Source: Oligoflexales bacterium (GTDB taxonomy: Bacteria > Bdellovibrionota_B > Oligoflexia > Oligoflexales > JAPPIL01). Taken from it: a stretch of 64,000 nucleotides of DNA. The notes beneath the pieces were generated by a model. That model worked only from the letters and a program-made list of their open reading frames with translations, had not been told where the DNA came from and did no database searches. A program made the position numbers and the translations under genes. Positions 13,744-41,331 of this stretch are shown piece by piece. The stretch covers positions 416,001-480,000 of the forward strand of contig OZ244057.1 of the NCBI GenBank assembly GCA_965215515.1, written 5' to 3'. The first letter of the stretch is position 1. Every line of letters begins with the position of its first letter.

Positions 13744-13760
13744 ACAACCTAGCTATGCGT

Positions 13761-13799
13761 TCGCGACTAGGGCTGCCACGCGGGCGGTTCTAGCCGCGA
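13761..13799 (+). terminator. Intergenic stem-loop (possible terminator or processing site)
   Basis: TCGCGACTAGGGCTGCC...GGCGGTTCTAGCCGCGA pairs with G-U wobbles and one mismatch; no immediate U-tract. Confidence 0.3.
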
Positions 13800-13826
13800 C
13801 ATCGCCGTTGTCGCTCAGCCAGTTTT

Positions 13827-15272
13827 TTGCTACACACCTGCCTGCCCATACATCGAGCGAGAGGCAGGGTTATCGCCATCAAACGTATCCTCATCGCTAA
13901 CCGCGGCGAAATTGCCGTGCGCATCGCACGTTCGGCACAGGAACTCGGCATCGAGACGGTTGCCGTCTACAACGCTGCCGACGCAGCCAGCGCACACCGT
14001 TTTACCAGCGACTATGCCGTGCAGTTGCACGGTGAGACGCTGGCCGAGACCTACTTGAACGCCGCCCTGCTCGTCACCGTCGCACAACGCAGCGGTTGCG
14101 ATGCCGTGCATCCTGGCTACGGGTTTCTGTCCGAGAACAGTGCCTTCGTGCAGGCCAGTGAGGAGGCAGGCCTAACCTTCATCGGCCCCCAAGCCGCCGC
14201 CGTGCGGCTACTAGGCGACAAGCTACGTGCCAAACAAACGCTCGCCGCGCACGGTATCCCCACCGTGCCTGGCGCGACACAGGCGTTACAAAACGTGGCG
14301 GAAGTCGACGCACCTCCCGATGCCTACCCGATTTTGCTCAAGGCTTCCCTCGGCGGAGGTGGTAAGGGTATTCGGGAGGTTAACAGCACCGCAGAGTTGC
14401 CCGCCGCCTTTGCGGCTTGTCAGCGCGAGGCACAGAATTATTTCGGCCACAGTGCTCTGCTGTGGGAAAAAAAATTAACCCAGCCGCGCCACATAGAGGT
14501 GCAAATTCTCGCCGACCAACATGGCAATGTCGTACACCTCTACGAACGCGACTGTTCCCTGCAACGCCGTTATCAGAAAATTTTAGAAGAGGCACCGAGC
14601 TGCTACCTCAACGCAGCGCAACGTGACCAGCTCGGTGCGTTGGCCGTGCAAGCCGCACGTGCTGTCAACTATCACGGTGTGGGCACGGTGGAATTTATCT
14701 GTGCCAGCCCCGACGAATGTTATTTTATGGAAGTAAACACCCGCATTCAAGTCGAGCACCCTGTGACCGAAATGGTGACGGGTATCGACCTTATCAAAGA
14801 GCAGATCGCCGTCGCGGCAAAGCAAGAACTACCTTTCACGCAAGCAGACATCGCGCTGCGTGGACACGCCATCGAAGTGCGCCTCAACTGCGAAGATGCG
14901 CAGCGGAACTTCGTCCCTTGCCCTGGCCTTATCACCGCACTCAGTTGGCCTGCAGGGGCGTTCGTACGGGTCGATTCGCACATCTATCGCGGGTATCGAG
15001 TACCTGCCGAGTTCGATTCCTTGCTGGCTAAAATCATCTGCCAAGGACGCGATCGCCGTGAGGCTATCGCCCGTACCTGCCGTGCCTTGCAAGAACTACA
15101 CATCGAAGGTGTGCCGACCACCGCAGCTTTTCACCGTCTGCTGTTGGAGCAAGAAGAATTTCGCACAGGTAATTTTGACACCGCTTTTCTCGAGCGCATG
15201 GCAACTCGTGATTTCGCCCCTGACCAGCATGCAGCACTGCTCGCCACCTTAAGCAGTCGAGGCACGGGATGA
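13827..15272 (+). CDS. accC: Biotin carboxylase
   Basis: ILIANRGEIAVR, HPGYGFLSEN, GGGGKG, RHIEVQ, ERDCSLQRR, FMEVNTRIQVEHPVTE. Start codon uncertain. Confidence 0.93.
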   Translation: MLHTCLPIHRARGRVIAIKRILIANRGEIAVRIARSAQELGIETVAVYNAADAASAHRFTSDYAVQLHGETLAETYLNAALLVTVAQRSGCDAVHPGYGFLSENSAFVQASEEAGLTFIGPQAAAVRLLGDKLRAKQTLAAHGIPTVPGATQALQNVAEVDAPPDAYPILLKASLGGGGKGIREVNSTAELPAAFAACQREAQNYFGHSALLWEKKLTQPRHIEVQILADQHGNVVHLYERDCSLQRRYQKILEEAPSCYLNAAQRDQLGALAVQAARAVNYHGVGTVEFICASPDECYFMEVNTRIQVEHPVTEMVTGIDLIKEQIAVAAKQELPFTQADIALRGHAIEVRLNCEDAQRNFVPCPGLITALSWPAGAFVRVDSHIYRGYRVPAEFDSLLAKIICQGRDRREAIARTCRALQELHIEGVPTTAAFHRLLLEQEEFRTGNFDTAFLERMATRDFAPDQHAALLATLSSRGTG

Positions 15273-26252: not shown

Positions 26253-27386
26253 GTGGTCTCTGTGCACGGTAAGCCGCAGGTCTATTTTGACAACAATGCA
26301 ACGACGCGGCTTTCACGCAGAGTCGAAGCTTGGCTTAGGAGCGATTTTGTCGCTAGATACGCTAACCCCTCTTCCACACACCTGCTAGGGCAAGAGCTGA
26401 GCGCCGAGATCGACAATGATCGAAGCTATATAGCTGATTTTGTTGGTGCAAATCCAAGCAATATCTTTTTTACCAGTGGTGCGACGGAGGCAATTAACAG
26501 CATCTTGCATCCGCTGTTTTTACAGGAGAGTGGCATTGAGGTAGTGCTCACCTCGCGACTTGAACACAGTGCTGTCGATGGTTGTATAGAGAGATTGAGA
26601 CAGCATCATACCAAGGTGATCTACCTCAACAATGGTAGCAATGGCCTGCTCTGTCCCGAACATTTGGCGGCACAAGTGCGGGCACATCCGCATGCGTTAG
26701 TGACCTTGCTTGGTGCAAATAATGAAACTGGCGTTGTGCAAGATATTGTACAGCTTACCACAATATGCCAAGCACACGACTGTCTTGTGCATCTTGATGG
26801 TGTGCAGATGCTTGGCAAGTTGCCTGTCAATCTCACCGAGATGGGTGTTAACTTCGCTAGTTTTTCCGCACACAAGCTCGGTGGTTTGAAGGGCGTGGGT
26901 TTTACTTATGTGCGTGAGCCATCACAATTCACCCCACTTATCGTCGGCGGAGGCCAGGAAAGTGGCTTACGTGCTGGCACATACAACGCGGGTGGTATTA
27001 AGAGTTTGCGCTTGGCGTTAGAGGACACAAGACATTGGGATTTACAAAAAATAAAAAGCATCCGTGATGCTTTTGAAGATGAGATAAAAAATTTCAAAAT
27101 AAAAGCAGAGGTTAATTGCCAAAATGCTCCTCGCTTGTGCAACACTAGCAACATACATCTCCCTAGCTTGCCTGCTCAAGCAATAGTAATGGGGCTTGCT
27201 ACGCGAGGAGTATACGTTTCGGTAGGGTCAGCTTGTCATGGTGCAGAACCAAGCCGTGTGTTAATGGGGCTCGGCTTTGACAGAGACTATGCGGCATCGT
27301 CTTTGCGGTTTTCTTTTGCTGATTTTAACCGCAGTGCAGAAATTGAATATGCTACTGAAGTTTTGCGTGAGATATTAGATAGATGA
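26253..27386 (+). CDS. sspA: Cysteine desulfurase (SspA/DndA-like)
   Basis: YFDNNATT, FFTSGATEAIN, SAHKLGG (PLP Lys), GGGQESGLRAGT, SVGSACH; ATGA overlap with the DUF4007 gene. Confidence 0.88.
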   Translation: MVSVHGKPQVYFDNNATTRLSRRVEAWLRSDFVARYANPSSTHLLGQELSAEIDNDRSYIADFVGANPSNIFFTSGATEAINSILHPLFLQESGIEVVLTSRLEHSAVDGCIERLRQHHTKVIYLNNGSNGLLCPEHLAAQVRAHPHALVTLLGANNETGVVQDIVQLTTICQAHDCLVHLDGVQMLGKLPVNLTEMGVNFASFSAHKLGGLKGVGFTYVREPSQFTPLIVGGGQESGLRAGTYNAGGIKSLRLALEDTRHWDLQKIKSIRDAFEDEIKNFKIKAEVNCQNAPRLCNTSNIHLPSLPAQAIVMGLATRGVYVSVGSACHGAEPSRVLMGLGFDRDYAASSLRFSFADFNRSAEIEYATEVLREILDR

Positions 27387-28252
27387 AATTTGGTGGTCAC
27401 GAAACATTTCATCTGCGTGATAATTGGCTGTTCAAAGGCCTGCGAATGCTAGCAAACGAGGGCGATTTGTTCAGCGATAGAGACGAAGCGATTGCGGTGC
27501 TCGGTGTTGGCACAAACATGGTAAAGTCAATGCGCTATTGGCTGTTAGCGACAGAGTTTGCCACAATTACAGACGGAACACTTACCTCGAGCCATATCGG
27601 CAAACTAATGCTGGCACGTGATCCATACTGCGATTGGCTAGGCTCGGCGTGGTTACTACATTATTCGTTAGCTTGTAACAAGAGCTATGCCACTACGTGG
27701 TTTTGGTTTTTCAATAAGTTTGGTATAAGCGAGTTCACCCCCGAATCAGCGGTGTATTATCTTGAAAACTACTGCTTACTCAACAACAAAAAAATAAACC
27801 GCAACACCCTCACTAAAGACATCAACACGCTTTTACGCATGTATGTTGAGCCAATCTTTGATGGACGCAGAACACCAGAAGATGTTGATGTTTGTCCTTT
27901 AACGAGGCTGTCCCTAATTAAGAAAGATACTAGCAATACTTATCGCTTAAATACACCTGATATTGATGAATTACCTGTGCAAATTTTTGGCTATACTCTA
28001 GTGCAGTTTTGGACACAGCAGTTGCAAAAGGTTGCACAGTTTTCTTTTGATGAGTTGCTTAAACGTGATTGCTCCCCTACGAAAGTATTTTGCTTGAACA
28101 CTGAGCGCACCATAGATCTACTGAATAAACTGGTGGAAAAGTTCCCACGTTGGTTTAGCTATCACCATACAGGAGGATTTTTTTCTATTGAAATAAATAC
28201 TAAAGTGCGGGAAGAAAAATTGCTAGACAGCTACTATGGAGAGGCAACTTGA
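27383..28252 (+). CDS. sspB: DUF4007 protein (SspB-like)
   Basis: KFGGHETFHLRDNWLFKG, LGVGTNMVKSMRYWL, DPY...WLLHY, WFWFFN. Confidence 0.88.
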   Translation: MKFGGHETFHLRDNWLFKGLRMLANEGDLFSDRDEAIAVLGVGTNMVKSMRYWLLATEFATITDGTLTSSHIGKLMLARDPYCDWLGSAWLLHYSLACNKSYATTWFWFFNKFGISEFTPESAVYYLENYCLLNNKKINRNTLTKDINTLLRMYVEPIFDGRRTPEDVDVCPLTRLSLIKKDTSNTYRLNTPDIDELPVQIFGYTLVQFWTQQLQKVAQFSFDELLKRDCSPTKVFCLNTERTIDLLNKLVEKFPRWFSYHHTGGFFSIEINTKVREEKLLDSYYGEAT

Positions 28253-31200
28253 AAAATATTTTTGTAAAAATAAAACGTAATTTTTCTCGCTCTAGCAATA
28301 TAAAGATTGATTTTAGCGACGATATAAATATCAAGAACATTGTATTGTCCGATAAGTTACAACGTGCTTTCGTTGATATCACTACTTCTATGCTCAACGA
28401 TAAGTCTAATCAGCGTGTGCATGTCTTAGCTGGCACACCTGGCACGGGCAAGTCAACTTTTGCTTTATTTACGGCACACAATCTTACTGCAAATAGCAAA
28501 GCAAAAGTTACCGCAACAGTTAAAAAACAGCGTCATATTGCTTCTCCTGATTTTTACAAAATATGGTCAGCGGTGAAGAATGTTAACTACCTACCTGTCT
28601 TTCTCAATGGCGATGAGGGTGAGATAGAAGAGGCTTTTCATGCGGCACTCAACGATGCTTTTGTTGCACATGGCTGGCGCAAGGAATTTGAACAACTGTC
28701 TATGAGCTGCTCGATACGGGCGGTAGCAATCATCAATGGCTGGCAAAAGAATTATCCCGATAAGCATCAGGAGTTGCAAAATTTTATTGCCGCACAGCCA
28801 ATTGGTAGCTTCCCAAAATTTATGCGTGCGTTACGTCAACACAGACGCTATGCACAGAAACTTTTTGTCGAGGCTTATCGTCAGATTACTGGTGGGGCAA
28901 GTGTAGGTTCGTATCGTCATGGTCAAGTTGTGGCTCTGTATCGTGGTGCTGTGAAATTTTTGCAGGAAGCAAAGGGGTTTGAGGGTATCTTTATCATCTA
29001 CGATGAGTTTGGCAAATATCTTGCCCGCGGAGTGCGCCAACCACATGATTTTGATCTACATTTTCTACAGGATATAGCAGAGCTGTGCAACAAGAGCGGC
29101 AAGCTGCACCTTCACATGCTGTTGATTACGCACTTGCCTGTTTCACAGTATACAACACAGTTGCCCAATGCTATTCAACAGGAATGGAAAAAAATTGAGG
29201 GGCGATTTCAGCAATCTTCTTTCAACAGCGGCTACGAGTCAAGCTATACACTGGTTGCAGCGGTGTTTTCCTCTGACATAAAACGGCGCAGCAAAAAGCT
29301 TTGGCAACACTTGTGTGCCTTGACCCGCGAGTGGCAGACACACAACAGAGCTTCAGGCAACATCGCCTCAGCGTGTGATTGTGCTGCAGAAACACTGAGC
29401 GACTGTTATCCCCTGCATCCGTCGGTGTTTGCTTTATTGCCGTTGTTGAGTGAAAAGGTTGCTCAAAATGAGCGCACCATGTTTTCTTTTCTTACCCGTA
29501 ACGAAGAGTTTTCATTGCCACATTTTCTGGAAAAAACGGCACTTAGCGAGAACAATTTACACTTTATGCGCCCCTATGATCTCTATTGCTACTTTCGTCC
29601 TTTGCTTGCTAGTGATGTTGGTATAGGTGGTGCTTGTAAGATAGCTATTGTTGTTGATAGTGTGTTAAACAGCCTTGATGCTGAGCAGAGCTGTGCGCAA
29701 GACATCGTTGCTGTGTTAGGTATTGCTGCCATTATCAACAATCGTTCGCTGCTTAAGACAAGCGAGCAATCACTCTTATCATTGCTGCATGGATTACATG
29801 ACTCGCAAGACATTGACGACACGCTGAAATTTTTACAGAAAAACAAAATGATCATCTTCGACAAAATAAAAACAGAATTCAGTCTTTTTGAGGGTTCTCC
29901 TGTTGATTTGCGAGAGGAGTTGAATAAAATCAGACAAAAAAGGCTTACAACGGATGGCTATACCAAAAATTTTCGAGACAATTTTCACGTTAATTTTGTC
30001 GTTCCCAAAAAATATAATTACGACAACGGTATCACGAGATTTTTTCGTGAACAACTACTATCTTTAGAGGAACTTGCCGCAGGTAAATATCGTGTTGACT
30101 ACAGCAAAGAAGACGGGCGAGTTTTTTATGTTGTGCCCTTCAACAACGAAGAAGTTCTGCGTATTAAAGATTATTGTCAACAAGCATCGTTAGCGTCTGC
30201 TCTGTTTGTAACTACTGATAAGCCAGTAGAAATAACTTCCGAGTTACTTGAGTTACAGGCAGTGACACAGCTGTATTCACACAAAGAGCTGCTGGCTACA
30301 GGAACGATGGTCAGCAAGGAGCTTAACCATTATCGTGAGACAGCACGTGAGTTGATCAGGAAAGCGTTGCGCCGTGTGCGCTCTAATCTGCATATGGGCG
30401 TTTCAGTTTTTTATCGTGGCAAGTGTGTAGAGGAAGGGGTAAAGACGATGGCGAGGTTAGCACAACTTGCCAGTCAGGTATGTACTGATGAGTATAGTAG
30501 TTATCCGTGCTTTTACAATGAGATGATTAACAAGCATCGTGTTAGCAACCCGATAATTCAGGGACGTATTCGTTTTGTCGAGGCTTGCCATAACAACTTT
30601 GCTCAACCTCGCTTTGGTATTGAGGGCGGCGGGCCTGAGTTTGCTATGTATCAAGCACTGATACGCACTAACAGCTTTGTATCCAAGGGTAGCAAGTGTG
30701 GATTTAAGCAGGGCAGTGCTCTGTTACCATTATTTAAAGATTTTTGTTCTCATCTACAAGCATCCGAGCGATCACCTATTAGCATGTTTGAGTTGATTGA
30801 GCGTTGGCAAAAACCACCGTTTGGGGTGCGTTTAGCATTGGTCCCTATCTATCTTAATATTTTTAGCAAGATGTCGCCCTCGCCGCTCAGTTTTTTCTAC
30901 GAGGGTCTTTATGTCAGCAAAGTTGATACCGATATGTTTGAGGCTTTGATCAAGCAACCCAAAAAATACAACCTACGCATGGTGATTATAGATACTAAAA
31001 AACGCAGCTATCTTCATGAACTTGCTAGTAAGTTTGCAGCACATCGACCCGATGCTTCATCTGTGGATAAGTCAACACTTGATTTTATTGCCGTTGCCAA
31101 GATTATCACGCGCTTTTATGCTCTCATCCCTAATTACACTCGCCGACACCCTTCATTGACAACGAGGGAAAAGCAACTGATCACTGCCCTTGATGGGTTT

Positions 31201-31965
31201 CGGCAGCCAGAAAATTTTATTTTAACAGAGTTACCGCTGTTGTATGCCAAGAAGCCGTTTAGTGATCTGGCTTTGCAGGAGCGGTCGTTATTTTTGCAGG
31301 CGTTGGAGCACGACATCGCTTCTTTATTCGGGCGTTATGTTGAGCTGATCAAGTGTTTAGCGCGGCATCAGAAGTCTGCTTTACAAAAACTACAACGCCT
31401 GAGTGGCAAGGTTGTTGTTGAAGAAATTACACGCGGCGCACCGCTGGCAACGTATTGGCAGCAGGTTGTGGGTAATTTTCCTGCGGATGTGTTGCTGTTT
31501 CCTTTTAGTGCCGTGACTACACGCTTTGTCAATCGAGCTATACAGTTAGGCAGTGATGCCAGCAATCAGCAGGCAGTTGAGAATATTGCCGATGCCTTGA
31601 CAGGTGCTAATCCCAAGAACTGGAGCGAGAAAGGCGAGACGTTGTTCAACTTCAATTTACGCCGCACTATTGCCGAAATTGAAGAAGTCAGCTGTTTGAA
31701 GGCACACAACAACACCAATCTTGTGAGAATTTCCAGTCTCCACCGAGCAGACAGCGAACCAGTCGTGCGTGAAATAGTGCGTGCCGAATTGCAACAGGAC
31801 AAGCACAAGCGTCTGCTAGAACGTTTCTGTCGCGAACTATCACACCTGCCAGACGAAGAAAAGAACAGTATCCTTCTGGCTGTGCTTGAACGCGTCAACA
31901 ACAAGGAACTACCCTCGCCATCAAAAATCACGGGCGAGGCCAGCATCAGTGCAGCTTGGGGTTGA
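28249..31965 (+). CDS. sspC: Large P-loop ATPase (SspC-like)
   Basis: GTPGTGKS (Walker A), IIYDEFGKYL (Walker B), EWKKIEGRF, YPLHP, AQNERTMFSFL, PPFGVR; overlaps the sspB stop. Confidence 0.85.
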   Translation: MKNIFVKIKRNFSRSSNIKIDFSDDINIKNIVLSDKLQRAFVDITTSMLNDKSNQRVHVLAGTPGTGKSTFALFTAHNLTANSKAKVTATVKKQRHIASPDFYKIWSAVKNVNYLPVFLNGDEGEIEEAFHAALNDAFVAHGWRKEFEQLSMSCSIRAVAIINGWQKNYPDKHQELQNFIAAQPIGSFPKFMRALRQHRRYAQKLFVEAYRQITGGASVGSYRHGQVVALYRGAVKFLQEAKGFEGIFIIYDEFGKYLARGVRQPHDFDLHFLQDIAELCNKSGKLHLHMLLITHLPVSQYTTQLPNAIQQEWKKIEGRFQQSSFNSGYESSYTLVAAVFSSDIKRRSKKLWQHLCALTREWQTHNRASGNIASACDCAAETLSDCYPLHPSVFALLPLLSEKVAQNERTMFSFLTRNEEFSLPHFLEKTALSENNLHFMRPYDLYCYFRPLLASDVGIGGACKIAIVVDSVLNSLDAEQSCAQDIVAVLGIAAIINNRSLLKTSEQSLLSLLHGLHDSQDIDDTLKFLQKNKMIIFDKIKTEFSLFEGSPVDLREELNKIRQKRLTTDGYTKNFRDNFHVNFVVPKKYNYDNGITRFFREQLLSLEELAAGKYRVDYSKEDGRVFYVVPFNNEEVLRIKDYCQQASLASALFVTTDKPVEITSELLELQAVTQLYSHKELLATGTMVSKELNHYRETARELIRKALRRVRSNLHMGVSVFYRGKCVEEGVKTMARLAQLASQVCTDEYSSYPCFYNEMINKHRVSNPIIQGRIRFVEACHNNFAQPRFGIEGGGPEFAMYQALIRTNSFVSKGSKCGFKQGSALLPLFKDFCSHLQASERSPISMFELIERWQKPPFGVRLALVPIYLNIFSKMSPSPLSFFYEGLYVSKVDTDMFEALIKQPKKYNLRMVIIDTKKRSYLHELASKFAAHRPDASSVDKSTLDFIAVAKIITRFYALIPNYTRRHPSLTTREKQLITALDGFRQPENFILTELPLLYAKKPFSDLALQERSLFLQALEHDIASLFGRYVELIKCLARHQKSALQKLQRLSGKVVVEEITRGAPLATYWQQVVGNFPADVLLFPFSAVTTRFVNRAIQLGSDASNQQAVENIADALTGANPKNWSEKGETLFNFNLRRTIAEIEEVSCLKAHNNTNLVRISSLHRADSEPVVREIVRAELQQDKHKRLLERFCRELSHLPDEEKNSILLAVLERVNNKELPSPSKITGEASISAAWG

Positions 31966-31978
31966 TGTGGATGTTAAC

Positions 31979-34459
31979 TTAGTCTTCACTTAGCTGCCGT
32001 ATTTTTTCTTCGTTAAGTCCCAACAAAAACTCGACATAATGGTTGGAAAAAAGATTTTCTATATATTCCCTGATTTCAATGACATTTTTATCTTGATTCT
32101 CTTCTTGTGATATCACAACCTTTTCTTTTTTAGTGATAGTAAAAAGAAATAGTGCATGGTAGTAAACAGTCATGAAATAATTTTTCTCATTCATTTTAAT
32201 TTTTTCTTCACTGGGATTTTTGTCTTTGTGGTTAAACTTTTTGAATACTGAACTATCCATATTAATGAATATTTGTTCTAGCTTGTCATCAACAAGTAAG
32301 TACACTACCTTGTTGTAATCCATAGTCCCGCCCATGTTTTCTATATCACTCCAGCATTTAGCTTTTGAGTCGTTATCGTTCTCCTTGTAAACTCTCACTG
32401 CCGGTGGCAACTTCAAATTAGCGGAATTAGTCTCTGTTCTTCTTGGTGTCTTTTGTAGGGCAGCAGTGGGTTCGCTTATCTTCACCCAAAAAATTTCGTC
32501 AAACTCTCCTTCAGGAGCGTTAGGGCTGCTTAGGCTCACCTTAATTTTTGCCTCATCACCAACCATGAGCTGCTTGTTGGGTGATAAGTGAAGTTTTATC
32601 TTGCCCTCTTGTGGGCTGCTCTTCGTTACAGTGAAAACATCCTCAATCTTTTCTGCTCTTCCTGTAGTGCAATCACTATCAGTATCGTTAGAGTTAAAAT
32701 CAAGCAAGCCAACATCCATATTGCCAGCCTCTTCAACACGATCAAAATAATTGTTTTCCACATCGGTATCGAAATAAATAGTTTTCTCACCTCCTCGTGG
32801 CACACTCACTGCATTAGTATCGTCACGTTTGCTGCGAAGCTTGAAATGTGCGGGAAAACGTTGGGGAGAAAATGGTTTCTCATCTTCGTGTCGCTTCTTT
32901 TTTATAGTTTTATAGGTGGGAAATATATCCCTACCCGCCTTACTTTTACCTGACTTTATAACTTGACTACACAGCCTTGCCAGTTCTTCACTCAACGGCA
33001 GATTGTGTGAAGTGGATTCGATTAGCTCCTCATTACCCTCATTGCCTGAAACAATAGATGCTTTACGCCGCTCTGAAATTTCTTTTAAACGTCCATCTTT
33101 GAGCTCACTTTTAAGAAACTCTCGCAGCTTTTTAGTTTCTTCACCGCCCTTCAGACGATCACGGGAAGCCATAAACAGCTCATCACGAAAACTTCTTTGC
33201 ACATCAGTGCAATCAACGTGAATGAGAAGATAGTCATTGAGCAAGTTCATCTTCAGCGACATGCTGATGAACTCACTAGTGAGATGGCCATGTACTTGAC
33301 CGTTGATAGAGAACAGTACTGACATGTTGTTCTTAAAAAACTCTCGTCGTATACTTTCTTTGGATTCTTTAGCGGTTTTGCCATCAATTTTTGCTTTAAA
33401 CACATAGCAGGTAATCTTTGTTGCTCCGATAGTCCTGTTACTCAAGCTAAGTGAAAAACTATCTTCAACATATTTATTCCCTTCCTCTTCCTCACTATTC
33501 TTGTCTCTGTTATCGCCCTTTTTTTCAAGCTTTCTCTTTAGACCATACAAGCCTCTCTTTAGGCTACTTTTAGGGTAACGTTCTTCCTTTTCAATGGTAT
33601 AAACAGGCAGAACAGGTTCAAATAGGTACTCGTTGATGCTTGCATTGAGGTCTCTAGATATATCAGATATTCCTTTAAGGGTGTAGGAATATAACTTGAT
33701 GATTGTGCCAGTAGTGAAGCTTCTCTTGAATAAGTTCAGCTCAAGGGTATCTACCGCAAAAGATGGTATTTCACCGTCAATTTTAAGGTATTCATACCAA
33801 GTATTTTTCTTGTTTTTCTCCTCTTCTGCAGTCATAGGGTGCTTTCTGATCAAGGTGAAGCCAAACTTGCCAGTGTCATCATATTTTTTTGAACCGATCA
33901 ATTGATAGCGTTTTTTGCCACAAAAGACGATAGCACCACTGCCACCCATATTGTATTTACCTTGCACAAACTGAATTTCATTCTTGTTGCCACGCACTAG
34001 AGACAGAAACGTATTCTCAAAATCATCTGGGTGCTGTCCTTCACCATCATCGTAAATTATCAAAGATGTGTCTCTCCTCTTCCCATCCGCTAATATTTGG
34101 ATATTCTCTGCCTGCTTATTTCTATTTTCAGTTAGATCCCAGTCCTTATATTCAGGGAAAAATTTTTCCTTTGCCTCTATCATCGACTGAGGAGCGTCTT
34201 TAGATTTGGGGTCAATACCTGCCTCTAAACATTTTTTAGTAAGCACTGCATCAATTGAGTTGGTGATTTTTTCTATCAATGCCGCTACAGGGTTAGCTTG
34301 CTGGTTCTCTACAATGCCATAGTTATTATCATTTCCACCGAGTGGCTGCCAATTACAGTCTGGCAATGCGTCAATGCTTTGCACAACCTTATCAACATCA
34401 GCTTCAGTGCCAGCGAAGTAGAGACGATTGAAAAGATCTTTCAATTCAGATTCTTGCAT
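31979..34459 (-). CDS. Uncharacterised 826-aa protein with N-terminal GHKL (Hsp90/MutL/MORC-like) ATPase
   Basis: EKITNSIDA (N box), IYDDGEGQ (G1), QGKYNMGGSG (G2), TGTIIKL (G3). C-terminal half not recognised. Confidence 0.75.
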   Translation of the reverse strand: MQESELKDLFNRLYFAGTEADVDKVVQSIDALPDCNWQPLGGNDNNYGIVENQQANPVAALIEKITNSIDAVLTKKCLEAGIDPKSKDAPQSMIEAKEKFFPEYKDWDLTENRNKQAENIQILADGKRRDTSLIIYDDGEGQHPDDFENTFLSLVRGNKNEIQFVQGKYNMGGSGAIVFCGKKRYQLIGSKKYDDTGKFGFTLIRKHPMTAEEEKNKKNTWYEYLKIDGEIPSFAVDTLELNLFKRSFTTGTIIKLYSYTLKGISDISRDLNASINEYLFEPVLPVYTIEKEERYPKSSLKRGLYGLKRKLEKKGDNRDKNSEEEEGNKYVEDSFSLSLSNRTIGATKITCYVFKAKIDGKTAKESKESIRREFFKNNMSVLFSINGQVHGHLTSEFISMSLKMNLLNDYLLIHVDCTDVQRSFRDELFMASRDRLKGGEETKKLREFLKSELKDGRLKEISERRKASIVSGNEGNEELIESTSHNLPLSEELARLCSQVIKSGKSKAGRDIFPTYKTIKKKRHEDEKPFSPQRFPAHFKLRSKRDDTNAVSVPRGGEKTIYFDTDVENNYFDRVEEAGNMDVGLLDFNSNDTDSDCTTGRAEKIEDVFTVTKSSPQEGKIKLHLSPNKQLMVGDEAKIKVSLSSPNAPEGEFDEIFWVKISEPTAALQKTPRRTETNSANLKLPPAVRVYKENDNDSKAKCWSDIENMGGTMDYNKVVYLLVDDKLEQIFINMDSSVFKKFNHKDKNPSEEKIKMNEKNYFMTVYYHALFLFTITKKEKVVISQEENQDKNVIEIREYIENLFSNHYVEFLLGLNEEKIRQLSED

Positions 34460-34682
34460 CTTGATAGCCTATCTTAATAGGTCTCCTTATCGTCATAATT
34501 TATGTAAAACTTAACATTGTTGTTAAAAAGTAGAGATTTCAAATTGTTAGACGATAAATAATCTTCTCCCTACGAGTAAACCCTCTTATTCCACACTTCC
34601 TGTTTCGGCAAGATTATTGTGTGATTTCTCATGAAAATAGTCTTTTATATTCAGTATGTTATGGTTAAAAAATACATGAAAC

Positions 34683-34723
34683 TTTACTTTTTGGCAGAAT
34701 TATCCGATAATAGGTGTAGGAGG
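34683..34723 (+). promoter_or_regulatory. Putative promoter and SD of the AbiE pair
   Basis: TTTACT-17 nt-GATAAT, then AGGAGG 5 nt before GTG 34729. Confidence 0.45.
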
Positions 34724-34728
34724 TTGTT

Positions 34729-35331
34729 GTGAAAAGGAAGACATCGCTACAAATGATGCAGGATGCTCTCAAGCCTGGCGGGGTATATCGTCGCTCCGAT
34801 TTTACTAAGCTGTCGTCTAACGTAGACCGAGACTTAGCCCAGCTGGTTGAGAACCGCAGTCTTCAGAGATTGCAACGTGGTATCTACCTATGTCCAAAAC
34901 ATACGATTTTTGGTCAAGACATACCAGACGAGAAAAAACTGCTATACAAGTTTCTGAATGACAATCGGTTTATTGTCTACAGCCCTTGCATGTTCAATAT
35001 GCTTGGGTTCGGCACTACCCAGCTGTATAATAAAGTAGTTGTTCTCAACTACAAAAGACAAGGCAAAATAGCAGTTGGCGATCGCGTTTTCTTTTTTCGC
35101 CGTCGCAAAAGAGTGCCTCGTACTGCAACCAAAGAATTTTTGTTAGTAGAAATGCTCAACTGTCGTTATGAGCTAGCCGAGGACATGCCGTGGGTTATAG
35201 GAAATATGCAGAAGCAATTACACCGATTTGATCGCAAGCTTCTTAAACGATCCGCTAAACTTTTTGGCAAAAGATCAACCCAAAAAACTGTAACACAACT
35301 CCTACAAGGACAGATACGTGTATCTCCATAA
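34729..35331 (+). CDS. abiEi: AbiEi-like antitoxin/transcriptional regulator (wHTH)
   Basis: VYRRSDF...VDRDLAQLV...LQRLQRGIY; FNMLGFGTTQL; overlaps the downstream AbiEii gene. Confidence 0.75.
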   Translation: MKRKTSLQMMQDALKPGGVYRRSDFTKLSSNVDRDLAQLVENRSLQRLQRGIYLCPKHTIFGQDIPDEKKLLYKFLNDNRFIVYSPCMFNMLGFGTTQLYNKVVVLNYKRQGKIAVGDRVFFFRRRKRVPRTATKEFLLVEMLNCRYELAEDMPWVIGNMQKQLHRFDRKLLKRSAKLFGKRSTQKTVTQLLQGQIRVSP

Positions 35332-36283
35332 CCGCAAGGACTTCAAAACCATAGTTAGATTATCTGCCGCTAAAAATAACGTCTTCAACCCCTATTTAGC
35401 AGAAAAAGACTACTGGATTATGCATTGCTTGCACAGCCTTTCATGTCTTGGTTTGCAGTTAGAACTAAAGGGGGGCACGTCTCTATCAAAGGGCTATGGC
35501 ATAGTTGAAAGATTTTCAGAAGATATTGACATAAAAATAGAGCCTGATGAACCTGTAACAGGTCTTAAGGTATACACAGGTAAAAATCACGACAAGAAAG
35601 CACACCGTCAGTCTAGAAAAAATTATTTTGATTGGCTTGCACGTGCTTTACATGGCAAAATTAATGGCATAACTAGTGTTGCAAGAGCTGAAAGCCTTGA
35701 CGACAAAAAGTTCAGAAACGGTGCTATTTTGTTGAGTTACAAATCACATTTCCGCGAAATAGAAGGGATAAGGCCTACCATCCTTCTAGAGGTTGGCTTT
35801 GACAAGACAGTTCCCAACAGCAAAAGAGACATCACTTCGTGGACTTTTGATGAAGGGCACGCCGCATTAGGTGATGCTATTACCGATAACAGAGCAAAGA
35901 ATATGCTCTGTTACGACCCAAGATATACGTTTGTGGAAAAACTGCAAGCAATTGTCAGCAAATACACTACATATAAAAATAACAAGCATGGTGTCAATCT
36001 TCCCAACAATTTTTTACGTCACTACTACGATATCTACTATTTGTTAGGAGTAAAAGAAGTTGTAAATTTTATTAATACTGATGAGTATAAGCGATACAAG
36101 CAAGAACGTTTCCGAAGTCATGACACTGTTATTAAGAATTGCGAGGGATTTAGTCTCAAAGATACCGAAGAGCGGAAAATATTCATGCACAGCTATCAAA
36201 CATCATCTGCTCTCTACTATAAAGGGCAGATCCCACTTGACAAAATACTAAAAAGAATCGCTGACTTTCTTCACATCCTCTAG
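35318..36283 (+). CDS. abiEii: AbiEii/AbiGii family nucleotidyltransferase toxin
   Basis: EKDYW, LKGGTSLSKGY, RFSEDIDI, TFVEKL, RHYYDIY. Confidence 0.9.
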   Translation: MYLHNRKDFKTIVRLSAAKNNVFNPYLAEKDYWIMHCLHSLSCLGLQLELKGGTSLSKGYGIVERFSEDIDIKIEPDEPVTGLKVYTGKNHDKKAHRQSRKNYFDWLARALHGKINGITSVARAESLDDKKFRNGAILLSYKSHFREIEGIRPTILLEVGFDKTVPNSKRDITSWTFDEGHAALGDAITDNRAKNMLCYDPRYTFVEKLQAIVSKYTTYKNNKHGVNLPNNFLRHYYDIYYLLGVKEVVNFINTDEYKRYKQERFRSHDTVIKNCEGFSLKDTEERKIFMHSYQTSSALYYKGQIPLDKILKRIADFLHIL

Positions 36284-36459
36284 CTGAGTGATTGCTTTGA
36301 TTTGCATGTTTCTGCCTCTCCTACCCACAATTTGTGTAAAAATTAAATTTATTGCTAAAAAAATAATCATATCAAACCACTAGACTATATTTATTGCTTT
36401 TGCCGACTTTATTTTCCATAGTGAAATATTAGGGCTAATTTAACAATTTATGGCGAGGC

Positions 36460-37281
36460 ATGATGAGCTATCTTAATGTTGAAGAGCAGGCACGCCACAT
36501 CGTTTCGTTGTCAGGGGGTAAGGACTCGACTGCACTAGCGGTGTATTTGAAAAACAAAATCCCCAACTTGGAGTATGTTTTTTGTGATACGGGGGCTGAG
36601 TTGGTCGAAACCTATGATTATTTGGATCGGGTCGAATCTTATTTGGAACGCAAGATTGTGCGCCTCAACAGCGGCAAGACGTTTGAGGAATTTCTCGATA
36701 AGCACCGCCAGTTTTTGCCTTCGCCACAGGCGCGTTGGTGTACGGCAGAGATGAAAATCAAGCCGTATGAGGACTATATCGGCAAAGATCGCTGCTACTC
36801 CTACATTGGCATTCGTGCTGATGAGCGGCGGGGTGGCTATATCTCTAGGCTACCGAACATCACGCCTGTATATCCATTCAAAGATGATGGCATCAATCGG
36901 GCAGGTGTTTACAAAATTCTGGAGGATTCAGGGCTAGGATTGCCAAAGTATTACGAATGGCGGTCACGTTCAGGTTGCTATTTTTGTTTTTTTCAGCGTA
37001 CCATTGAATGGGTTGGCTTGCTGGAGAGGCATCCCCAGCTATTTGCTAAAGCTGAAGAGTTTGAGCGACAGGGTTATGCAGGTGATGACGTAAAATTTAC
37101 GTGGGTGCAAGGAAGAACACTTGACTGGATCAGAGAAAACAAGGATAAGATCAAGGAATCGCACCGCATGAGGATGGAGAAGGCAGCTGCGATGCGGAAG
37201 AGCACTAATATTCACGATGTGTTTGCCGAAGCTACCGATCAGGAAACGGCCACCAAGCCTTGTGATATATGTGAGATATGA
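36460..37281 (+). CDS. sspD: PAPS-reductase family protein (SspD-like)
   Basis: SLSGGKDS (PP-loop), FCDTGAE, LPSPQARWCT, GIRADE, RSRSGCYFCFFQR, C-terminal CDIC. Confidence 0.88.
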   Translation: MMSYLNVEEQARHIVSLSGGKDSTALAVYLKNKIPNLEYVFCDTGAELVETYDYLDRVESYLERKIVRLNSGKTFEEFLDKHRQFLPSPQARWCTAEMKIKPYEDYIGKDRCYSYIGIRADERRGGYISRLPNITPVYPFKDDGINRAGVYKILEDSGLGLPKYYEWRSRSGCYFCFFQRTIEWVGLLERHPQLFAKAEEFERQGYAGDDVKFTWVQGRTLDWIRENKDKIKESHRMRMEKAAAMRKSTNIHDVFAEATDQETATKPCDICEI

Positions 37282-38750
37282 CTACTGCTGACGGCGAGCG
37301 TACCATTCACAGAGGGAGAACAGCTATTGAACGCCATTCCTGTTCGCAGCCAGTCAGACTTGCCTTGCGTGATGCGATCATCAGGCGTGAGTTAAGTTTC
37401 TTTGATTATGGCTGTGGTCGTGGGGCTGACGTATCTTTTCTCGCGACTCAAGGTGTGGCGGCGAATGGCTACGATCCTTGTTTTTTTCCACAAGCCCCTA
37501 AGACTGCTGCCCATGTCGTTAATCTTGGCTACGTTATCAATGTCATCGAAGACCATACCGAGCGTATCTCAGTGATCAAAGATGCCTTTGCTCTTGCCCA
37601 ACTGTGCCTAATCGTTGCAGCACAAACAAAGGCCGCGGCTATCAGTGGTGCAGCTGTTTTCAATGATGGCTATGTCACCAAGCGCAACACTTTCCAAAAG
37701 TACTACGGTCAGAACGAGCTACGTGACTTACTGCACAAGGTGCTGAACATTACTCCTTACCCCGCGGGGCCTGGTATCTTCTATATTTTCAAGGACGAGA
37801 AGGCACGCAATACTTATCTCGCAGTGAGATATGACTCGACAAGGTTGTTGCGTTTCAACAGCAACCGCACGTGGCAACGTCAACAGGTGCAAGAGTTACG
37901 GGAACAACGGTTGCAAAATTCTGACGCAGCTGGTCCGCTAATTGAATGGGTTAGCATACATGCTCGTTTTCCTACTGATTTTGAGTTTCCAGCACTAGAC
38001 AAAATCCTTGCTCTAGGAATATCATATAAATTTTTGCAAGAGTGGGTCTTTGCTAATCTCGATCAAGAAATTTTGGCAACCACACGTAAGATTCGGCAAC
38101 AAGATATTCTGCTAATGCTTGCTTTGACACGTTTTGAAGGAAGACCTAAGCTAAGTGCCTTGCCTGACAGGGCCAGACATGACATCAAATCTTTTTTCAA
38201 CAGCTACCAGAATGCCTGTGAAGAGGCTGACCGTTTGCTGTTCAGTGTTGGCAAGGTTGATACGATTCGCCAAGCAATTGAACAAGCAACAGTAGGCAAA
38301 AAACTTCCTGACAGCCTCTATGTGCATACTTCCGCCGTCCCCTACTTACCCTTGGCCTTGCAGGTCTTTGTCGGTTGTGGGCGTGCTGTTGTCGGTGATA
38401 TGGAGGGTGACGTAATTGTAAAAATTCTCAAAAAGGCAACTTCGGTGTCTTTTTTGCTTTACCGCAACTTTGACACCGACCCACACCCAGAACTGTTATT
38501 GTCAACGAAGGTTGATTTGCGCAGTGGACACTCCTACCCACGTGATTACAGCAAATCGGATAATCCGCCCATACTGCATCGCAAGGAAACCTTCGTCACC
38601 AAAGACTACCCACACTATGAAGAATTTTGTCGTACTACAGCACACGAAGAAAAACTTGGCTTGCTGAGCAGAAACGGCATTGGCTTTCGCAAAAGCTGGC
38701 AGAGGTTACTCACCGAAATCAGCGAGGGCAATCAGCCGCCCACTGCTTAA
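37278..38750 (+). CDS. DNA phosphorothioation-associated putative methyltransferase
   Basis: HRGRTAIER...SQPV, FDYGCGRGAD, GYDP, VVNLGYVINVIED..ER, DGYVTKRNTFQKYY, GKKLPDSLYVH, FDTDPHPEL, ILHRKETFV; ATGA overlap with sspD. Confidence 0.85.
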   Translation: MTTADGERTIHRGRTAIERHSCSQPVRLALRDAIIRRELSFFDYGCGRGADVSFLATQGVAANGYDPCFFPQAPKTAAHVVNLGYVINVIEDHTERISVIKDAFALAQLCLIVAAQTKAAAISGAAVFNDGYVTKRNTFQKYYGQNELRDLLHKVLNITPYPAGPGIFYIFKDEKARNTYLAVRYDSTRLLRFNSNRTWQRQQVQELREQRLQNSDAAGPLIEWVSIHARFPTDFEFPALDKILALGISYKFLQEWVFANLDQEILATTRKIRQQDILLMLALTRFEGRPKLSALPDRARHDIKSFFNSYQNACEEADRLLFSVGKVDTIRQAIEQATVGKKLPDSLYVHTSAVPYLPLALQVFVGCGRAVVGDMEGDVIVKILKKATSVSFLLYRNFDTDPHPELLLSTKVDLRSGHSYPRDYSKSDNPPILHRKETFVTKDYPHYEEFCRTTAHEEKLGLLSRNGIGFRKSWQRLLTEISEGNQPPTA

Positions 38751-38799
38751 GTGCGCTCTTGCTCCATCCACCAATTGTAGACAGCATCGGGGCACAATT

Positions 38800-40071
38800 C
38801 TATCCATCCGTCCAGCCAAGCCAATCCTCCGCGAGCGTTTCCCACACTGCATGCCCAAGCCGTTCACCTCTTTTCTTGATAGCTTCGTCGTTGAGGTGGT
38901 TGTTTTTGTCGAGATAGCTATCACCATAGGAAATTACCTCTCTCAAGATTTCAAGATAAGGCATACCATCACCAGTGTCTTTCCTCTCTAGGCATTGTTC
39001 GTATATTCTTCTTTTGGAGACAAAGTTTTCTTTCCCTGCTTTGGCGTTAATCTTTTGTGGAAGCAGAACTAAGTTGCCAATTCTGTTGATTGTCTTGTAG
39101 CTTTGTGGGACAATGTGCTCTATCGATTTGTAGTCATATTCTTCATAGTTTTGTATAGTGAGAAACTTCAATTTTGATTTTACAAAAGCTTGTGTTTCTG
39201 GGTCAAAATGCATTTTATGAAATGCAACAAACAAAACAAACCTCGTAAATTTTATTCGCTTATAGATGTTAATGTCTGCGAATTCTTTAATCCACTCTCC
39301 TCTAGTCATATCTCTATTTTTCCATTTCTTTAGTAGACATTTTCTGAGCTCGTTTCTTAATCCAGCAGCATCGTAGCCTTCACGAAAGAGAGCTTCTGTA
39401 ATATTTTTGTACTGGTTATCTATTCTATCTGTACCAGCGTCAGCAGCAACCCCACGCCAAAGACAGCTAAATGCAGCACATGCCTTGACTACCTCGTCTC
39501 TCTCCCTATTTTCTGCAAATTTAAACAGGATAGGAATGACTCTGTCATGAGCTATGGACTTCAGAAATTCAAAGCAGACGGCGGCTTCTCCAGTCGTAAA
39601 TATACTTTTACCGTTCGCTTTTTCCCAGTTGTTTTCTATAATAAAGTTATGGATATCACAAATACTGTCAATGTAATCCGGAATTTTATCTTCCATCTCA
39701 TTTGATATTTTATCGAGAATAACTCTCTTATCACGTAGACTAGTGAATTTATCTGTATTCAACTCCTCATGCATCATGCTTAGGAACAGAAGCAATCTAT
39801 CTGTGTACTTGTTCTGTTTGTTTTTTTTCATTTTCATATTACTAAGTGATGTTTCAACTTTATTTAGCCGATCTGCTATTTTTTCCTTTTGTGTCTTTTT
39901 GTAAATACGAGATTTTAGCATTTCAAATGCAGTTAGTGGCTCTCCTGTTGAGTTGAAGGTATTGAATATATCAATAGCATAGTCCTCAGAAAGCTCGCCT
40001 TGAACAACAAGAAAGCAAAACTGTGATCTGTCAAGAACATACGAGGCATATTTTAGAAAATCACCTCCCAT
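38800..40071 (-). CDS. sspE: SspE-like protein, C-terminal part (end of DUF262 plus DUF1524 nuclease)
   Basis: FNTFNSTGEPLTAFE, AFSCLWRG...GTDRID..YK, SIEHIVPQ, IGNLVLLP..IN. The frame is open upstream to ~40146. Confidence 0.75.
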   Translation of the reverse strand: MGGDFLKYASYVLDRSQFCFLVVQGELSEDYAIDIFNTFNSTGEPLTAFEMLKSRIYKKTQKEKIADRLNKVETSLSNMKMKKNKQNKYTDRLLLFLSMMHEELNTDKFTSLRDKRVILDKISNEMEDKIPDYIDSICDIHNFIIENNWEKANGKSIFTTGEAAVCFEFLKSIAHDRVIPILFKFAENRERDEVVKACAAFSCLWRGVAADAGTDRIDNQYKNITEALFREGYDAAGLRNELRKCLLKKWKNRDMTRGEWIKEFADINIYKRIKFTRFVLFVAFHKMHFDPETQAFVKSKLKFLTIQNYEEYDYKSIEHIVPQSYKTINRIGNLVLLPQKINAKAGKENFVSKRRIYEQCLERKDTGDGMPYLEILREVISYGDSYLDKNNHLNDEAIKKRGERLGHAVWETLAEDWLGWTDG

Positions 40072-40076
40072 TTCTT

Positions 40077-40685
40077 CTATTTCTTCCCCAAAAATACTGG
40101 GTATTTTAAAAATACTGGGTATTTTTTTGCATCGATGTTGGTTATTTCATTACTCTTAAAAAGATATTTCAGAATATCTGCTTCAAGAGCTAGAGCGCTA
40201 TCATGTTCGACACTGCGCTCCCTTTCCAGTCTTTCAGTGGTGGATAAGGCGTTACAAATAGTATCAACTATTTTTTCCTCTTCAATCTTTTTTCTAATTA
40301 AAATTTCCTTTTTGTTATTATCAGTTTCCTGCTCTATGGTCTCTTTGAGATGTTGTCCCCCCGAAGTAAGTTCTTTTTTAATAAGCTTCAACAAAATTAA
40401 AAATGAAGTTATCCTCTGCTGTCCATCAATCAGAATATATTTCTTCTCCATGCGTCTTCCTTCAACTTTCTCTGCCACAATTATTGAGCCAAAGAATGCT
40501 GGTAAATTTTGTTCTTTGCTATCTCTTATGGTTGTCATTAAATCTTTAAAATTTTCACTAATCCACGAATAAGGTCGCTGATAGACAGGAATGATAAAAC
40601 GATTTTTGAGAATTTCCCTTAGCGAAATAAGTCTTGAGTTCCTGTTTTCGTTCTCTACGATAATTATTTCTGCTTCACTACTCAC
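40077..40685 (-). CDS. sspE: SspE-like protein, N-terminal DUF262 part (out of frame with the C-terminal part)
   Basis: IPVYQRPYSW, FFGSII, LIDGQQRITS; ends KKYPVFLKYPVFLGKK* just after an A7 run. Confidence 0.78.
   Translation of the reverse strand: MSSEAEIIIVENENRNSRLISLREILKNRFIIPVYQRPYSWISENFKDLMTTIRDSKEQNLPAFFGSIIVAEKVEGRRMEKKYILIDGQQRITSFLILLKLIKKELTSGGQHLKETIEQETDNNKKEILIRKKIEEEKIVDTICNALSTTERLERERSVEHDSALALEADILKYLFKSNEITNIDAKKYPVFLKYPVFLGKK
40090..40125. repeat. 18-bp tandem duplication of a quasi-palindromic unit at the sspE frameshift
   Basis: AAAAATACTGGGTATTTT x2; the second unit runs into the T7 tract at 40122-40128. Confidence 0.95.
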
Positions 40686-40884: not shown

Positions 40885-41331
40885 TTATTCAGCTAGCACG
40901 TCAGGGAACACAGTTATCTCCCCCCGCACATCGTAAAGACAGAGATCGAAACGGCAATGATCGACATCAGGTTGGTGCGCGTTAAGAAAATGTTGTGCGC
41001 CACGCCTTAACGCCTTACGCTTGCGTGGAGTAATGAACTCAACTAGAGGGCGCGTCACGTCGCGCTGTCGTGCCTTGACCTCGATAAAAACCAAGTTACG
41101 TGCTTGGCGAGCGACGAGATCTATCTCAAACCCCCTACCACGATAATTACGTGCCAACACCTGCCAACCACGCGCCACCCACCACTCCGCAACCGCATCT
41201 TCGCCTTCACGAGCACGCCGATGCCAGGAAATCCTTGATGGGTGCGAAGTTACGGCGGTGCAGGGGGCAGATACCGTGGGCGCGGATTTTTTGGAGATGC
41301 AGACGTGTGCCATAACCGACATGCCGCTCAA
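40885..41331 (-). CDS. yraN: YraN family endonuclease-like protein
   Basis: EGED.VA, VLARNYR...EIDLVAR, LVFIEVKAR, CRFD. Start uncertain (overlaps rnhB). Confidence 0.85.
   Translation of the reverse strand: MSGMSVMAHVCISKKSAPTVSAPCTAVTSHPSRISWHRRAREGEDAVAEWWVARGWQVLARNYRGRGFEIDLVARQARNLVFIEVKARQRDVTRPLVEFITPRKRKALRRGAQHFLNAHQPDVDHCRFDLCLYDVRGEITVFPDVLAE

Follow-up and report, generated by a model that had tools for sequence, protein, structure and literature searches.

Which protein acts on the phosphorothioate (PT) marks of a defence island whose own PT-sensing nuclease gene is broken? The question is raised by an island at positions 26253 to 40685 of a 64,000-nucleotide (nt) stretch of DNA from an Oligoflexales bacterium (assembly GCA_965215515.1, contig OZ244057.1, positions 416,001 to 480,000; G000:C1:416001-480000). 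This stretch is referred to here as the window and comes from a single-contig 2.18-Mb genome. The island carries sspA-sspB-sspC, a reverse-strand gene for a GHKL ATPase, the pair abiEi/abiEii, sspD, a putative methyltransferase gene and a convergent, broken sspE, in this order. Xiong et al. reportedly described SspABCD-SspE in 2020 as a PT-sensing defence. The system is summarised in PMC8092258 and PMC10853773; here and below, cited papers are compared by the accessible parts of their text. According to Wang et al. 2021 (PMC8092258), sspE and sspFGH are both missing from 83.9% of 2,678 sspBCD loci, and further partners were predicted.

Our results point to the GHKL gene (31979..34459, minus strand), which encodes an Ssp-linked ATPase of the MORC/MutL/Hsp90-like kind with 826 amino acids (aa). 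Because its family is tied to sspBCD across many metagenome loci, the gene defines a recurrent Ssp subtype that appears to be undescribed. For the same reason, the view of an earlier model-made annotation of this DNA (the initial annotation), in which the gene was counted among three extra modules, had to be corrected: the gene does more than split the ssp operon. Taken as a whole, the explanation to which we lean, with a confidence not far above even, is a laterally acquired Ssp island with a broken sspE, in which the GHKL protein would belong to the restriction or reader side as a clamp driven by ATP.

Linkage of the GHKL gene to Ssp genes

The GHKL protein matched Pfam HATPase_c_3 (5e-6) and had no match in PADLOC or NCBIfam. 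At least 2,881 homologues were found in one search, most of them with full-length identities of about 57% and none with an informative name. We aligned 27 homologues taken from the best 120 of these and used the alignment to fetch 80 metagenome loci, in which the GHKL homologues were 42-64% identical in the best tblastn segment. With the window proteins as tblastn queries, sspD was matched in 49 of the 80 loci, sspC in 39, sspB in 32, sspA in 15, sspE in one and the methyltransferase gene in none. All 18 loci having at least 8 kb on both sides of the GHKL gene contained sspB/C/D within 10 kb. The same genes were present in 40 of the 47 loci having at least 6 kb on one side, and in each of the 30 loci without sspB/C/D the contig ended early on one side.

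Two arrangements were recurrent (sspB-C-D > slot > GHKL, and GHKL > slot < sspD-C-B), with a distance between sspD and the GHKL gene of 74 nt to 6.5 kb; sspA often adjoined the GHKL gene. Among the 28 loci with four complete genes, GHKL was the most conserved protein, its median pairwise identity being 0.54, compared with 0.50 for SspD, 0.29 for SspB and 0.24 for SspC. GHKL pairwise distances tracked those of SspB/C/D (Spearman 0.51-0.67; none of 999 permutations reached the observed value); since these loci share ancestry, the correlation is a sign of co-inheritance and not of interaction. In the window's own phylum, sspD was present in 7 of 131 genomes and the GHKL gene in two, both times within the ssp cluster. 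A sample of 301 Planctomycetota genomes contained seven with sspD, and the GHKL gene was found in none of the six sspD genomes checked.

These observations bear on the idea that the GHKL gene works independently, as a one-gene defence system that just shares islands with Ssp, as slot cargo does. Such a system would suit the gene's own strand in the window, the fact that PADLOC has no model for it and the general clustering of defence genes in islands. We nevertheless regard it as very improbable, considering that sspB/C/D were constant at well-flanked loci while the intervening cargo varied, that GHKL divergence tracked that of SspB/C/D, and that both copies in the window's phylum lay inside an ssp cluster.

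Predicted fold and superfamily of the GHKL protein

An AlphaFold2 model built from 109 diverse sequences had a predicted local distance difference test score (pLDDT) of 88.2 and a predicted template modelling score of 0.85, while the 27-row alignment gave a pLDDT of 45.1. In the predicted structure, a GHKL domain with transducer (residues 42-470) is followed by an Ig-like sandwich (534-665) and a C-terminal domain (685-826). The closest structural matches of residues 42-470 were GRP94 (Z 19.4), SMCHD1 (17.1), MORC3 (17.0), TRAP1 (16.3), MutL (15.7) and MORC2 (15.7), and Foldseek agreed. The sandwich matched at Z of about 7.5, a common value, and residues 685-826 had no match among solved structures. 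The ATP-binding motifs of the GHKL domain were recognised as EKITNSIDA at residue 63 and DDGEG at residue 137. Across the 109 sequences, D137, G139, G141, G167, G172 and the transducer residue R433 were invariant, and E63, N67 and D70 were kept in at least 90%.

Other searches added little. By sequence, the single protein matched no solved structure and its profile reached just the level of chance (E 0.031). In the ESM Atlas, the whole protein fell into unnamed or HATPase clusters only, and residues 530-826 had no usable match. Fused forms of at least 1,447 aa were not found, which is weak evidence. A complex prediction with two copies of residues 530-826 scored 0.11 against a mark of 0.42, a result that neither supports nor opposes dimerisation.

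The wider superfamily is large, since the GHKL profile matched 2,035 clusters (50% identity), and for many of these the match was confined to the first ~575 positions. Distant members, 25-30% identical to the window protein, were present in 7 of 301 Planctomycetota genomes. At the five loci of such paralogues that we extracted, no Ssp neighbours were found, and in three of the four loci scanned a Type II DNA methyltransferase gene directly adjoined the paralogue. The possibility that the whole superfamily is linked to Ssp was rejected on account of these members; the link holds for the close subfamily only. Because distant paralogues adjoin Type II methyltransferases, the ATPase core appears to accompany DNA-modifying enzymes that differ in chemistry; the C-terminal third appears to be specific to each subfamily.

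Two groups of known proteins can be compared. The MORC/paraMORC GHKL+S5 ATPases (Iyer, Abhiman & Aravind 2008, PMC2292703) share with the window protein an N-terminal GHKL domain with intact ATP motifs, an S5-type transducer, a family-specific C-terminal extension, a patchy and laterally mobile distribution, and a linkage to DNA modification. The window protein differs in being linked to the PT machinery of Ssp and in having no fixed SFII helicase or recognisable nuclease partner; the likeness is one of fold, motifs and neighbourhood. The terms 'PAPS reductase' and 'phosphorothioat' occurred nowhere in the accessible listing of PMC2292703. In VcSduA (Shedu type I-D), a paraMORC3-like GHKL domain is fused to a DUF4263 nuclease (PMC12137116). 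It is likewise a GHKL ATPase in phage defence, for which effector control as a dimeric clamp has been proposed (PMC12137116); in contrast, neither DUF4263 nor another PD-(D/E)xK domain was found in the window protein by Pfam or PADLOC, and the Ig-like sandwich and the C-terminal domain stand instead.

Ssp genes of the island

The ten open reading frames (ORFs) of the island were scanned against Pfam, PADLOC and NCBIfam. The first three ssp genes lie on the plus strand: sspA (26253..27386), coding for a cysteine desulfurase of 377 aa (PADLOC SspA 1.9e-95, Pfam Aminotran_5 1.6e-57); sspB (27383..28252), coding for a DUF4007 DNA-binding subunit of 289 aa (Pfam DUF4007 6.9e-74, PADLOC SspB 4.7e-67); and sspC (28249..31965), coding for a P-loop ATPase of 1238 aa (PADLOC SspC 2.1e-143 versus BrxC 4.6e-47). 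The fourth, sspD (36460..37281, plus strand), encodes a PAPS-reductase-like ATP pyrophosphatase of 273 aa (PADLOC SspD 3.5e-104, Pfam PAPS_reduct 1e-10); it is thus the short 273-aa ORF, and the 490-aa ORF that follows is the methyltransferase gene. SspA has kept its pyridoxal phosphate-lysine motif (SAHK, residue 205) and its cysteine loop (SVGSAC, residue 323), the Walker A motif of SspC is GTPGTGKS at residue 62, and the PP-loop of SspD is SGGKDS at residue 18. With these catalytic motifs intact, the products of sspA, sspB, sspC and sspD should install PT marks.

The composition of the island is secure. The gene set reported initially (desulfurase, DUF4007 protein, P-loop ATPase, PAPS reductase and a convergent DUF262/DUF1524 gene) was recovered in full from the ORFs and the hidden Markov model (HMM) scans, as were the overlapping stop and start codons, which are 4-nt overlaps (ATGA between sspA and sspB, TTGA between sspB and sspC, and ATGA between sspD and the methyltransferase gene with which it had been said to overlap). 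The separation of sspD from sspABC, described as about 4.5 kb, measures 4494 nt and holds, as described, the GHKL gene and the AbiE pair; sspC and the convergent GHKL gene are 13 nt apart. A scan for promoters and terminators remained near chance (34 found versus 28.6 expected, and 21 versus 13.3) and was not used.

Identity with another system was also considered. In BREX type 4, BrxP (a PAPS reductase, usually fused to DUF4007) occurs with BrxC, PglZ and BrxL. PADLOC did give weak matches of SspB and SspD to BrxP (9.5e-08 and 3.8e-11), besides that of SspC to BrxC, all of which stem from the homology shared by Ssp and BREX systems (PMC12839542). The Ssp scores of SspC and SspD were far higher, PAPS reductase and DUF4007 are separate genes here, and neither PglZ nor BrxL was matched by any of the 10 island ORFs in PADLOC. 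A BREX type 4 locus was rejected as practically untenable, and the initial assignment to the SspABCD-SspE type was upheld, with PADLOC Ssp models matching all five ssp genes.

Compared with SspABCD-SspE, the window shares the desulfurase, the DUF4007 protein, the large P-loop ATPase, the PAPS-reductase-like protein and the DUF262/DUF1524 nuclease. It differs in that sspD is detached from sspABC, that its gene set also includes a GHKL ATPase and a TIGR04096 protein, and that sspE is shorter (~630 aa, as in two relatives) and frameshifted. The resemblance to SspBCD-SspFGH lies in an alternative partner module on the same PT-writing genes (PMC8092258). As described there, SspF is characterised by a Walker A motif only and SspH by FtsK-like similarity; measured against these descriptions, the window GHKL protein is the product of a single gene and belongs to a different fold class. 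All 10 island ORFs fell in families other than SspF, SspG and SspH, although it is uncertain whether the libraries hold models for these three. The methyltransferase and GHKL genes were absent from the accessible published descriptions of SspABCD-SspE and SspFGH, in line with the initial claim that they lie outside these modules; for the methyltransferase, that claim overlooked a PT link already catalogued as TIGR04096. A full-text literature search found no link between Ssp and a GHKL protein in the accessible texts, although supplementary tables of surveys could list such neighbours.

The sspE lesion

The minus-strand sspE consists of two ORFs. The proximal one (40077..40685, 202 aa, GmrSD_N 3.7e-22) holds the N-terminal part of DUF262 and ends at a premature TAG (...NIDAKKYPVFLKYPVFLGKK*). 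The distal one (38800..40071, 423 aa; PADLOC SspE 4e-49, GmrSD_C 3.6e-09, HNH_4 3.3e-04) holds the end of DUF262 and DUF1524/HNH, and it is collinear with intact orthologues of 636 and 638 aa. A single intact DUF262 + DUF1524/HNH frame is not present in the window. At the place where the distal frame reads ...KKIPSIFKIPSIFGEEIEEMGGDF..., the two orthologues read ...VDAKNIPRTFKEEVEE... and ...VDLRENPKIFAEWLDD.... Three-frame translation and orthologue alignments located a frame change of -1 at an A7 run (40122..40128, minus strand): the alignment of the proximal ORF to the orthologues ended at DAKK, and homology jumped to the -1 frame exactly at the run, in which one extra A would preserve the frame. 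Immediately following it is a perfect 18-bp tandem duplication (40090..40125, minus strand; Tandem Repeats Finder: period 18, 2.0 copies, 100% match), which places KIPSIF twice in the distal frame and is missing from both orthologues. The gene for the PT-sensing nuclease is thus predicted to be inactivated by a -1 frame change at the A7 run, next to an 18-bp duplication. Both the inversion and the split of sspE that had been reported initially were seen; the inversion, which had been called unusual, is the usual convergent orientation in both relatives with an intact gene.

The lesion is real. Assembly error as its cause was rejected because Logan contigs from four sequencing runs (three samples of one study; depth 87.6 in one run) were identical to the window over 39600-40600, with no substitutions or indels. 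Each unit of the duplication is a small palindrome (AAAATAC-CCA-GTATTTT), and hairpin-mediated slippage may be the source of both the duplication and the adjacent 1-nt loss.

Another question is whether the split gene is dead. Slippage, either of the ribosome by -1 or during transcription, could still yield a little full-length SspE, or the A-run could act as a phase-variable switch. In the proximal frame, the A7 run indeed forms an X_XXY_YYZ heptamer (A_AAA_AAA), a -1 shift would give an orthologue-like junction (...DAKK-IPSIF...), and the palindromic duplication unit follows the run. On the other hand, no spacer lies between the slippery run and the hairpin, the orthologues are plainly in frame without an A-run of such length, the duplication adds another lesion at this very place, and no variant of A7 was seen in the contigs of the four runs, though minor variants may be hidden. 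Residual expression therefore appears improbable, and inactivation of sspE is retained as our reading.

Proposed role of the GHKL protein

In the role that we propose, the GHKL protein would dimerise as an ATP-driven clamp on DNA, like MORC, MutL and paraMORC proteins, and would serve a distinct Ssp subtype on its restriction or reader side. It would make DNA manipulation, or the action of slot-encoded effectors, depend on the PT status of the DNA, similar to the role proposed for paraMORC proteins in methylation-based restriction-modification (R-M) systems. With sspE broken, it would be the most likely remaining PT-linked effector of this genome. We infer this mechanism from fold and neighbourhood only; a role on the reader or restriction side is favoured over one in sulfur chemistry because the superfamily context matches the MORC/paraMORC picture of R-M systems, as far as given in PMC2292703.

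Several points weigh against this proposal. The GHKL gene was present in just two of the seven sspD-positive genomes of its own phylum and in none of the six examined in Planctomycetota, and neighbourhood evidence cannot prove physical or functional coupling. A nuclease or other effector domain was not recognised in the protein, whose C-terminal 140 residues had no fold match. The four runs that support the sspE lesion share one study, possibly the source sample of the genome, and contigs hide rare variants. In addition, very high conservation and frequent adjacency to sspA suit a modification role at least as well as that of an arms-race effector.

The last point leads to a modification accessory, that is, an ATP-driven clamp or chaperone that would aid SspBCD and SspA in DNA loading or sulfur delivery. 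It would agree with a median identity above those of SspD, SspB and SspC, with the placement of sspA next to the GHKL gene in several loci (for example, L034, L085 and L088), with the fact that no nuclease domain was found by Pfam, PADLOC or structure comparison, and with a slot that already offers candidate effectors. Nevertheless, most sspD genomes examined had no GHKL gene, and the distant paralogues pair in three of four loci with ordinary DNA methyltransferases, enzymes that work without a helper of this kind. Moreover, plasmid-borne IscS-SspBCD, for which no GHKL protein is named in the accessible text, protects Escherichia coli from SspFGH toxicity and supports defence (PMC8092258). Considering these facts, such an accessory seems rather unlikely, and we retain the clamp on the reader or restriction side.

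A bolder version of the latter would make the GHKL protein the missing restriction or silencing arm of a large class of SspBCD systems that look like orphans: a MORC-like clamp driven by ATP would read PT and either compact and silence unmarked invader DNA or license the interchangeable slot effectors, and a second layer would come from the TIGR04096 protein, which would place another mark on DNA or modify the PT sulfur. We put this forward quite tentatively, as a conjecture with the odds against it.

The variable slot and the AbiE pair

The pair between the GHKL gene and sspD consists of abiEi (34729..35331, plus strand), coding for an antitoxin/regulator of 200 aa (PADLOC AbiEi 8.3e-63, Pfam DUF6088 1.3e-06), and abiEii (35318..36283, plus strand), coding for a nucleotidyltransferase toxin of 321 aa (Pfam AbiEii 3.3e-28, PADLOC AbiEii 3e-60). 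As in AbiE type IV toxin-antitoxin (TA) and abortive infection systems, the two genes are adjacent, overlap (by 14 nt) and have strong matches; the pair differs just in its position, nested in the GHKL-sspD slot of the ssp cluster.

Local alignment revealed an imperfect direct repeat of ~48 nt that brackets the pair (left copy 34482..34529, right copy 36317..36361), with a score of 38 against a mean of 19.1 (s.d. 2.3, maximum 26) in 200 shuffles. Both copies resembled part of the GHKL-sspD spacer of G049, a metagenome-assembled genome (MAG) of the window's family and a different genus, in which the slot is an empty 205-nt spacer. This suggests that the AbiE cassette was inserted into a short GHKL-sspD spacer.

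Slot genes between sspD and the GHKL gene were annotated by Pfam and PADLOC in 12 loci. They included a dGTPase, PDC-M62A/B, DUF262-only (NsnA-like) proteins paired with SIR2, HEPN or a protein kinase, Mrr, ParB-like proteins, a DndB-like protein, double-GHKL paraMORC-histidine-kinase proteins and a full SspE. Since slot contents vary, the slot of G049 is empty and the repeat brackets the cassette, AbiE is best read as self-contained cargo in a recurrent variable slot. Of the three extra modules counted initially, AbiE alone looks like independent cargo, whereas the GHKL gene is linked to Ssp and the methyltransferase was already catalogued. What is new thus appears to be the recurrent GHKL-Ssp subtype, the link of TIGR04096 to PT being already known and AbiE being ordinary cargo.

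The double-GHKL proteins of the slot, different from the GHKL protein of the window, were located in L026 (5679-8069), L088 (5544-7910) and L047 (16456-18801); they have an N-terminal HATPase_c_3 and a C-terminal histidine-kinase HATPase_c domain (paraMORC-HK type) and are followed by an unannotated gene of 400-680 aa. Further defence genes were seen upstream of the sspA/GHKL end, namely Tiamat (TmtA, E = 0) in L034 (5677-8778) and Wadjet JetC/JetD-like genes in L055 (5169-9807).

The putative methyltransferase

The gene that overlaps sspD (37278..38750, plus strand) encodes a DNA phosphorothioation-associated putative methyltransferase of 490 aa, which matched NCBIfam TIGR04096 (dnd_rel_methyl) at 7.9e-137, with 456.9 bits against a curated cut-off of 150, over profile positions 2-466 of 478. 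The match is thus full-length, no family-level difference was seen, and the gene closes the set of modification genes on the 3' side, like that of the Planctomycetota genome G175. At least 4,512 homologues were found, many of them so named by NCBI or JGI and chiefly from cyanobacteria, where forms of 680-800 aa carry an extra N-terminal copy of the C-terminal domain. The conserved motif I (FDYGCGxGxD) is the sole link to class I S-adenosylmethionine methyltransferases: Pfam gave Methyltransf_23 at 0.0021, PDB profile matches were at E 0.015 or weaker and covered motif I alone, and the single sequence matched no solved structure. A DNA-methyltransferase signature was not seen in the protein.

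Our census of this family rests on small samples, and a single-protein search of genome contigs gave three loci. In the window's phylum, TIGR04096 was above cut-off in 4 of 131 genomes, all four of which had sspD; the gene directly follows sspD in the window's genome, in G049 and in G047, and in G059 it is separated from sspC/D/A by ~10 kb. Of the 301 Planctomycetota genomes, five were positive. Among them, SspC and SspD lay within 8 kb in G131, the gene followed dndC-dndD-dndE in G175, a cysteine desulfurase was its neighbour on a 2.3-kb contig in G305, and neither Ssp nor Dnd genes were seen near it in G151 and G400. The family was therefore seen beside both Ssp and Dnd modules. Judging from such neighbourhoods, the TIGR04096 family of putative methyltransferases is probably a general accessory of PT-writing modules that is known at the annotation level. 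In the full-text literature search, TIGR04096 was mentioned only in a Rhodococcus genome paper, and experimental work was not found.

Two structural variants were seen. In G047 (L022, 15118-16206), ~130 internal residues are missing in frame, leaving 362 aa that match window residues 3-181 and 316-481. The C-terminal domain (FYPDFDxDPHP, NPPxLHRKE), for which there is no Pfam model, can be duplicated, its second copy being fused N-terminally (in cyanobacteria) or forming a separate upstream fragment; such copies were found in L003 (9100-9531), L004 (3911-4207), L019 (15883-16365) and L112 (12706-13137) and in proteins P0280-P0390.

Lateral origin of the island

The island, initially described as AT-rich, indeed has a guanine-plus-cytosine (GC) content of 0.36-0.49, compared with 0.52-0.60 in its flanks. 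G049 has an island of the same order without AbiE, and the identities between the window and this MAG were 73% for SspA, 82% for SspB, 75% for SspC, 76% for GHKL, 93% for SspD, 80% for the methyltransferase and 55-64% for SspE; two housekeeping proteins flanking the island were just 49% and 46% identical. In the window's own genus, G047 has sspABCD, the internally deleted methyltransferase gene and an intact sspE (51-80% identity) at a different chromosomal place, and neither the GHKL gene nor AbiE, while in G048 matches to sspD, GHKL and TIGR04096 were all absent. Lateral exchange of the island is indicated by these facts, that is, by island proteins 55-93% identical to those of G049 against 46-49% for the flanks, by the different place in G047 and by its absence from G048. 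We conclude that this is a laterally acquired low-GC defence island of ~14.4 kb built on the Ssp single-stranded DNA PT system.

It should be noted that the borders gave few clues: no convincing att-like direct repeats and no integrase were found there, the window contains no tRNA gene, and an empty site could not be shown, the flanking genes being non-syntenic in G047 and G048. A YraN/UPF0102-like ORF (40885-41331, minus strand) directly flanks the island, and a 33%-identical ORF lies ~4 kb from the GHKL gene in L029 (5668-6042); their presence near a GHKL gene in both places is probably a coincidence. Elsewhere in the window, a 771-aa ORF amid housekeeping genes (20378-22693, minus strand) had no Pfam match at E <=0.001, and the GC skew changes sign at ~12000-14000, with a cumulative minimum of -2.20 near 13 kb.

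Implications

Partnerless sspBCD clusters are the large majority of the loci surveyed in PMC8092258, and the GHKL protein offers a concrete candidate partner for one such subtype. The island is also a convenient natural test case: its sspE no longer has an intact frame, its slot contains a simple AbiE pair, and a relative has a near-identical island that lacks AbiE. In addition, it shows an uncharacterised and very common protein, TIGR04096, attaching to both Dnd and Ssp modules. In a wider context, the finding connects phosphorothioation with the GHKL clamps whose targets are epigenetic marks, both in R-M systems and in eukaryotic chromatin. If the GHKL protein were the missing arm of orphan SspBCD, prokaryotes would have an equivalent of the silencing by MORC/SMCHD1 in eukaryotes, with a mark on the DNA backbone as its cue. 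At a more general level, a large GHKL family whose close members are found almost only beside Ssp genes is likely to be a missing partner of Ssp immunity.

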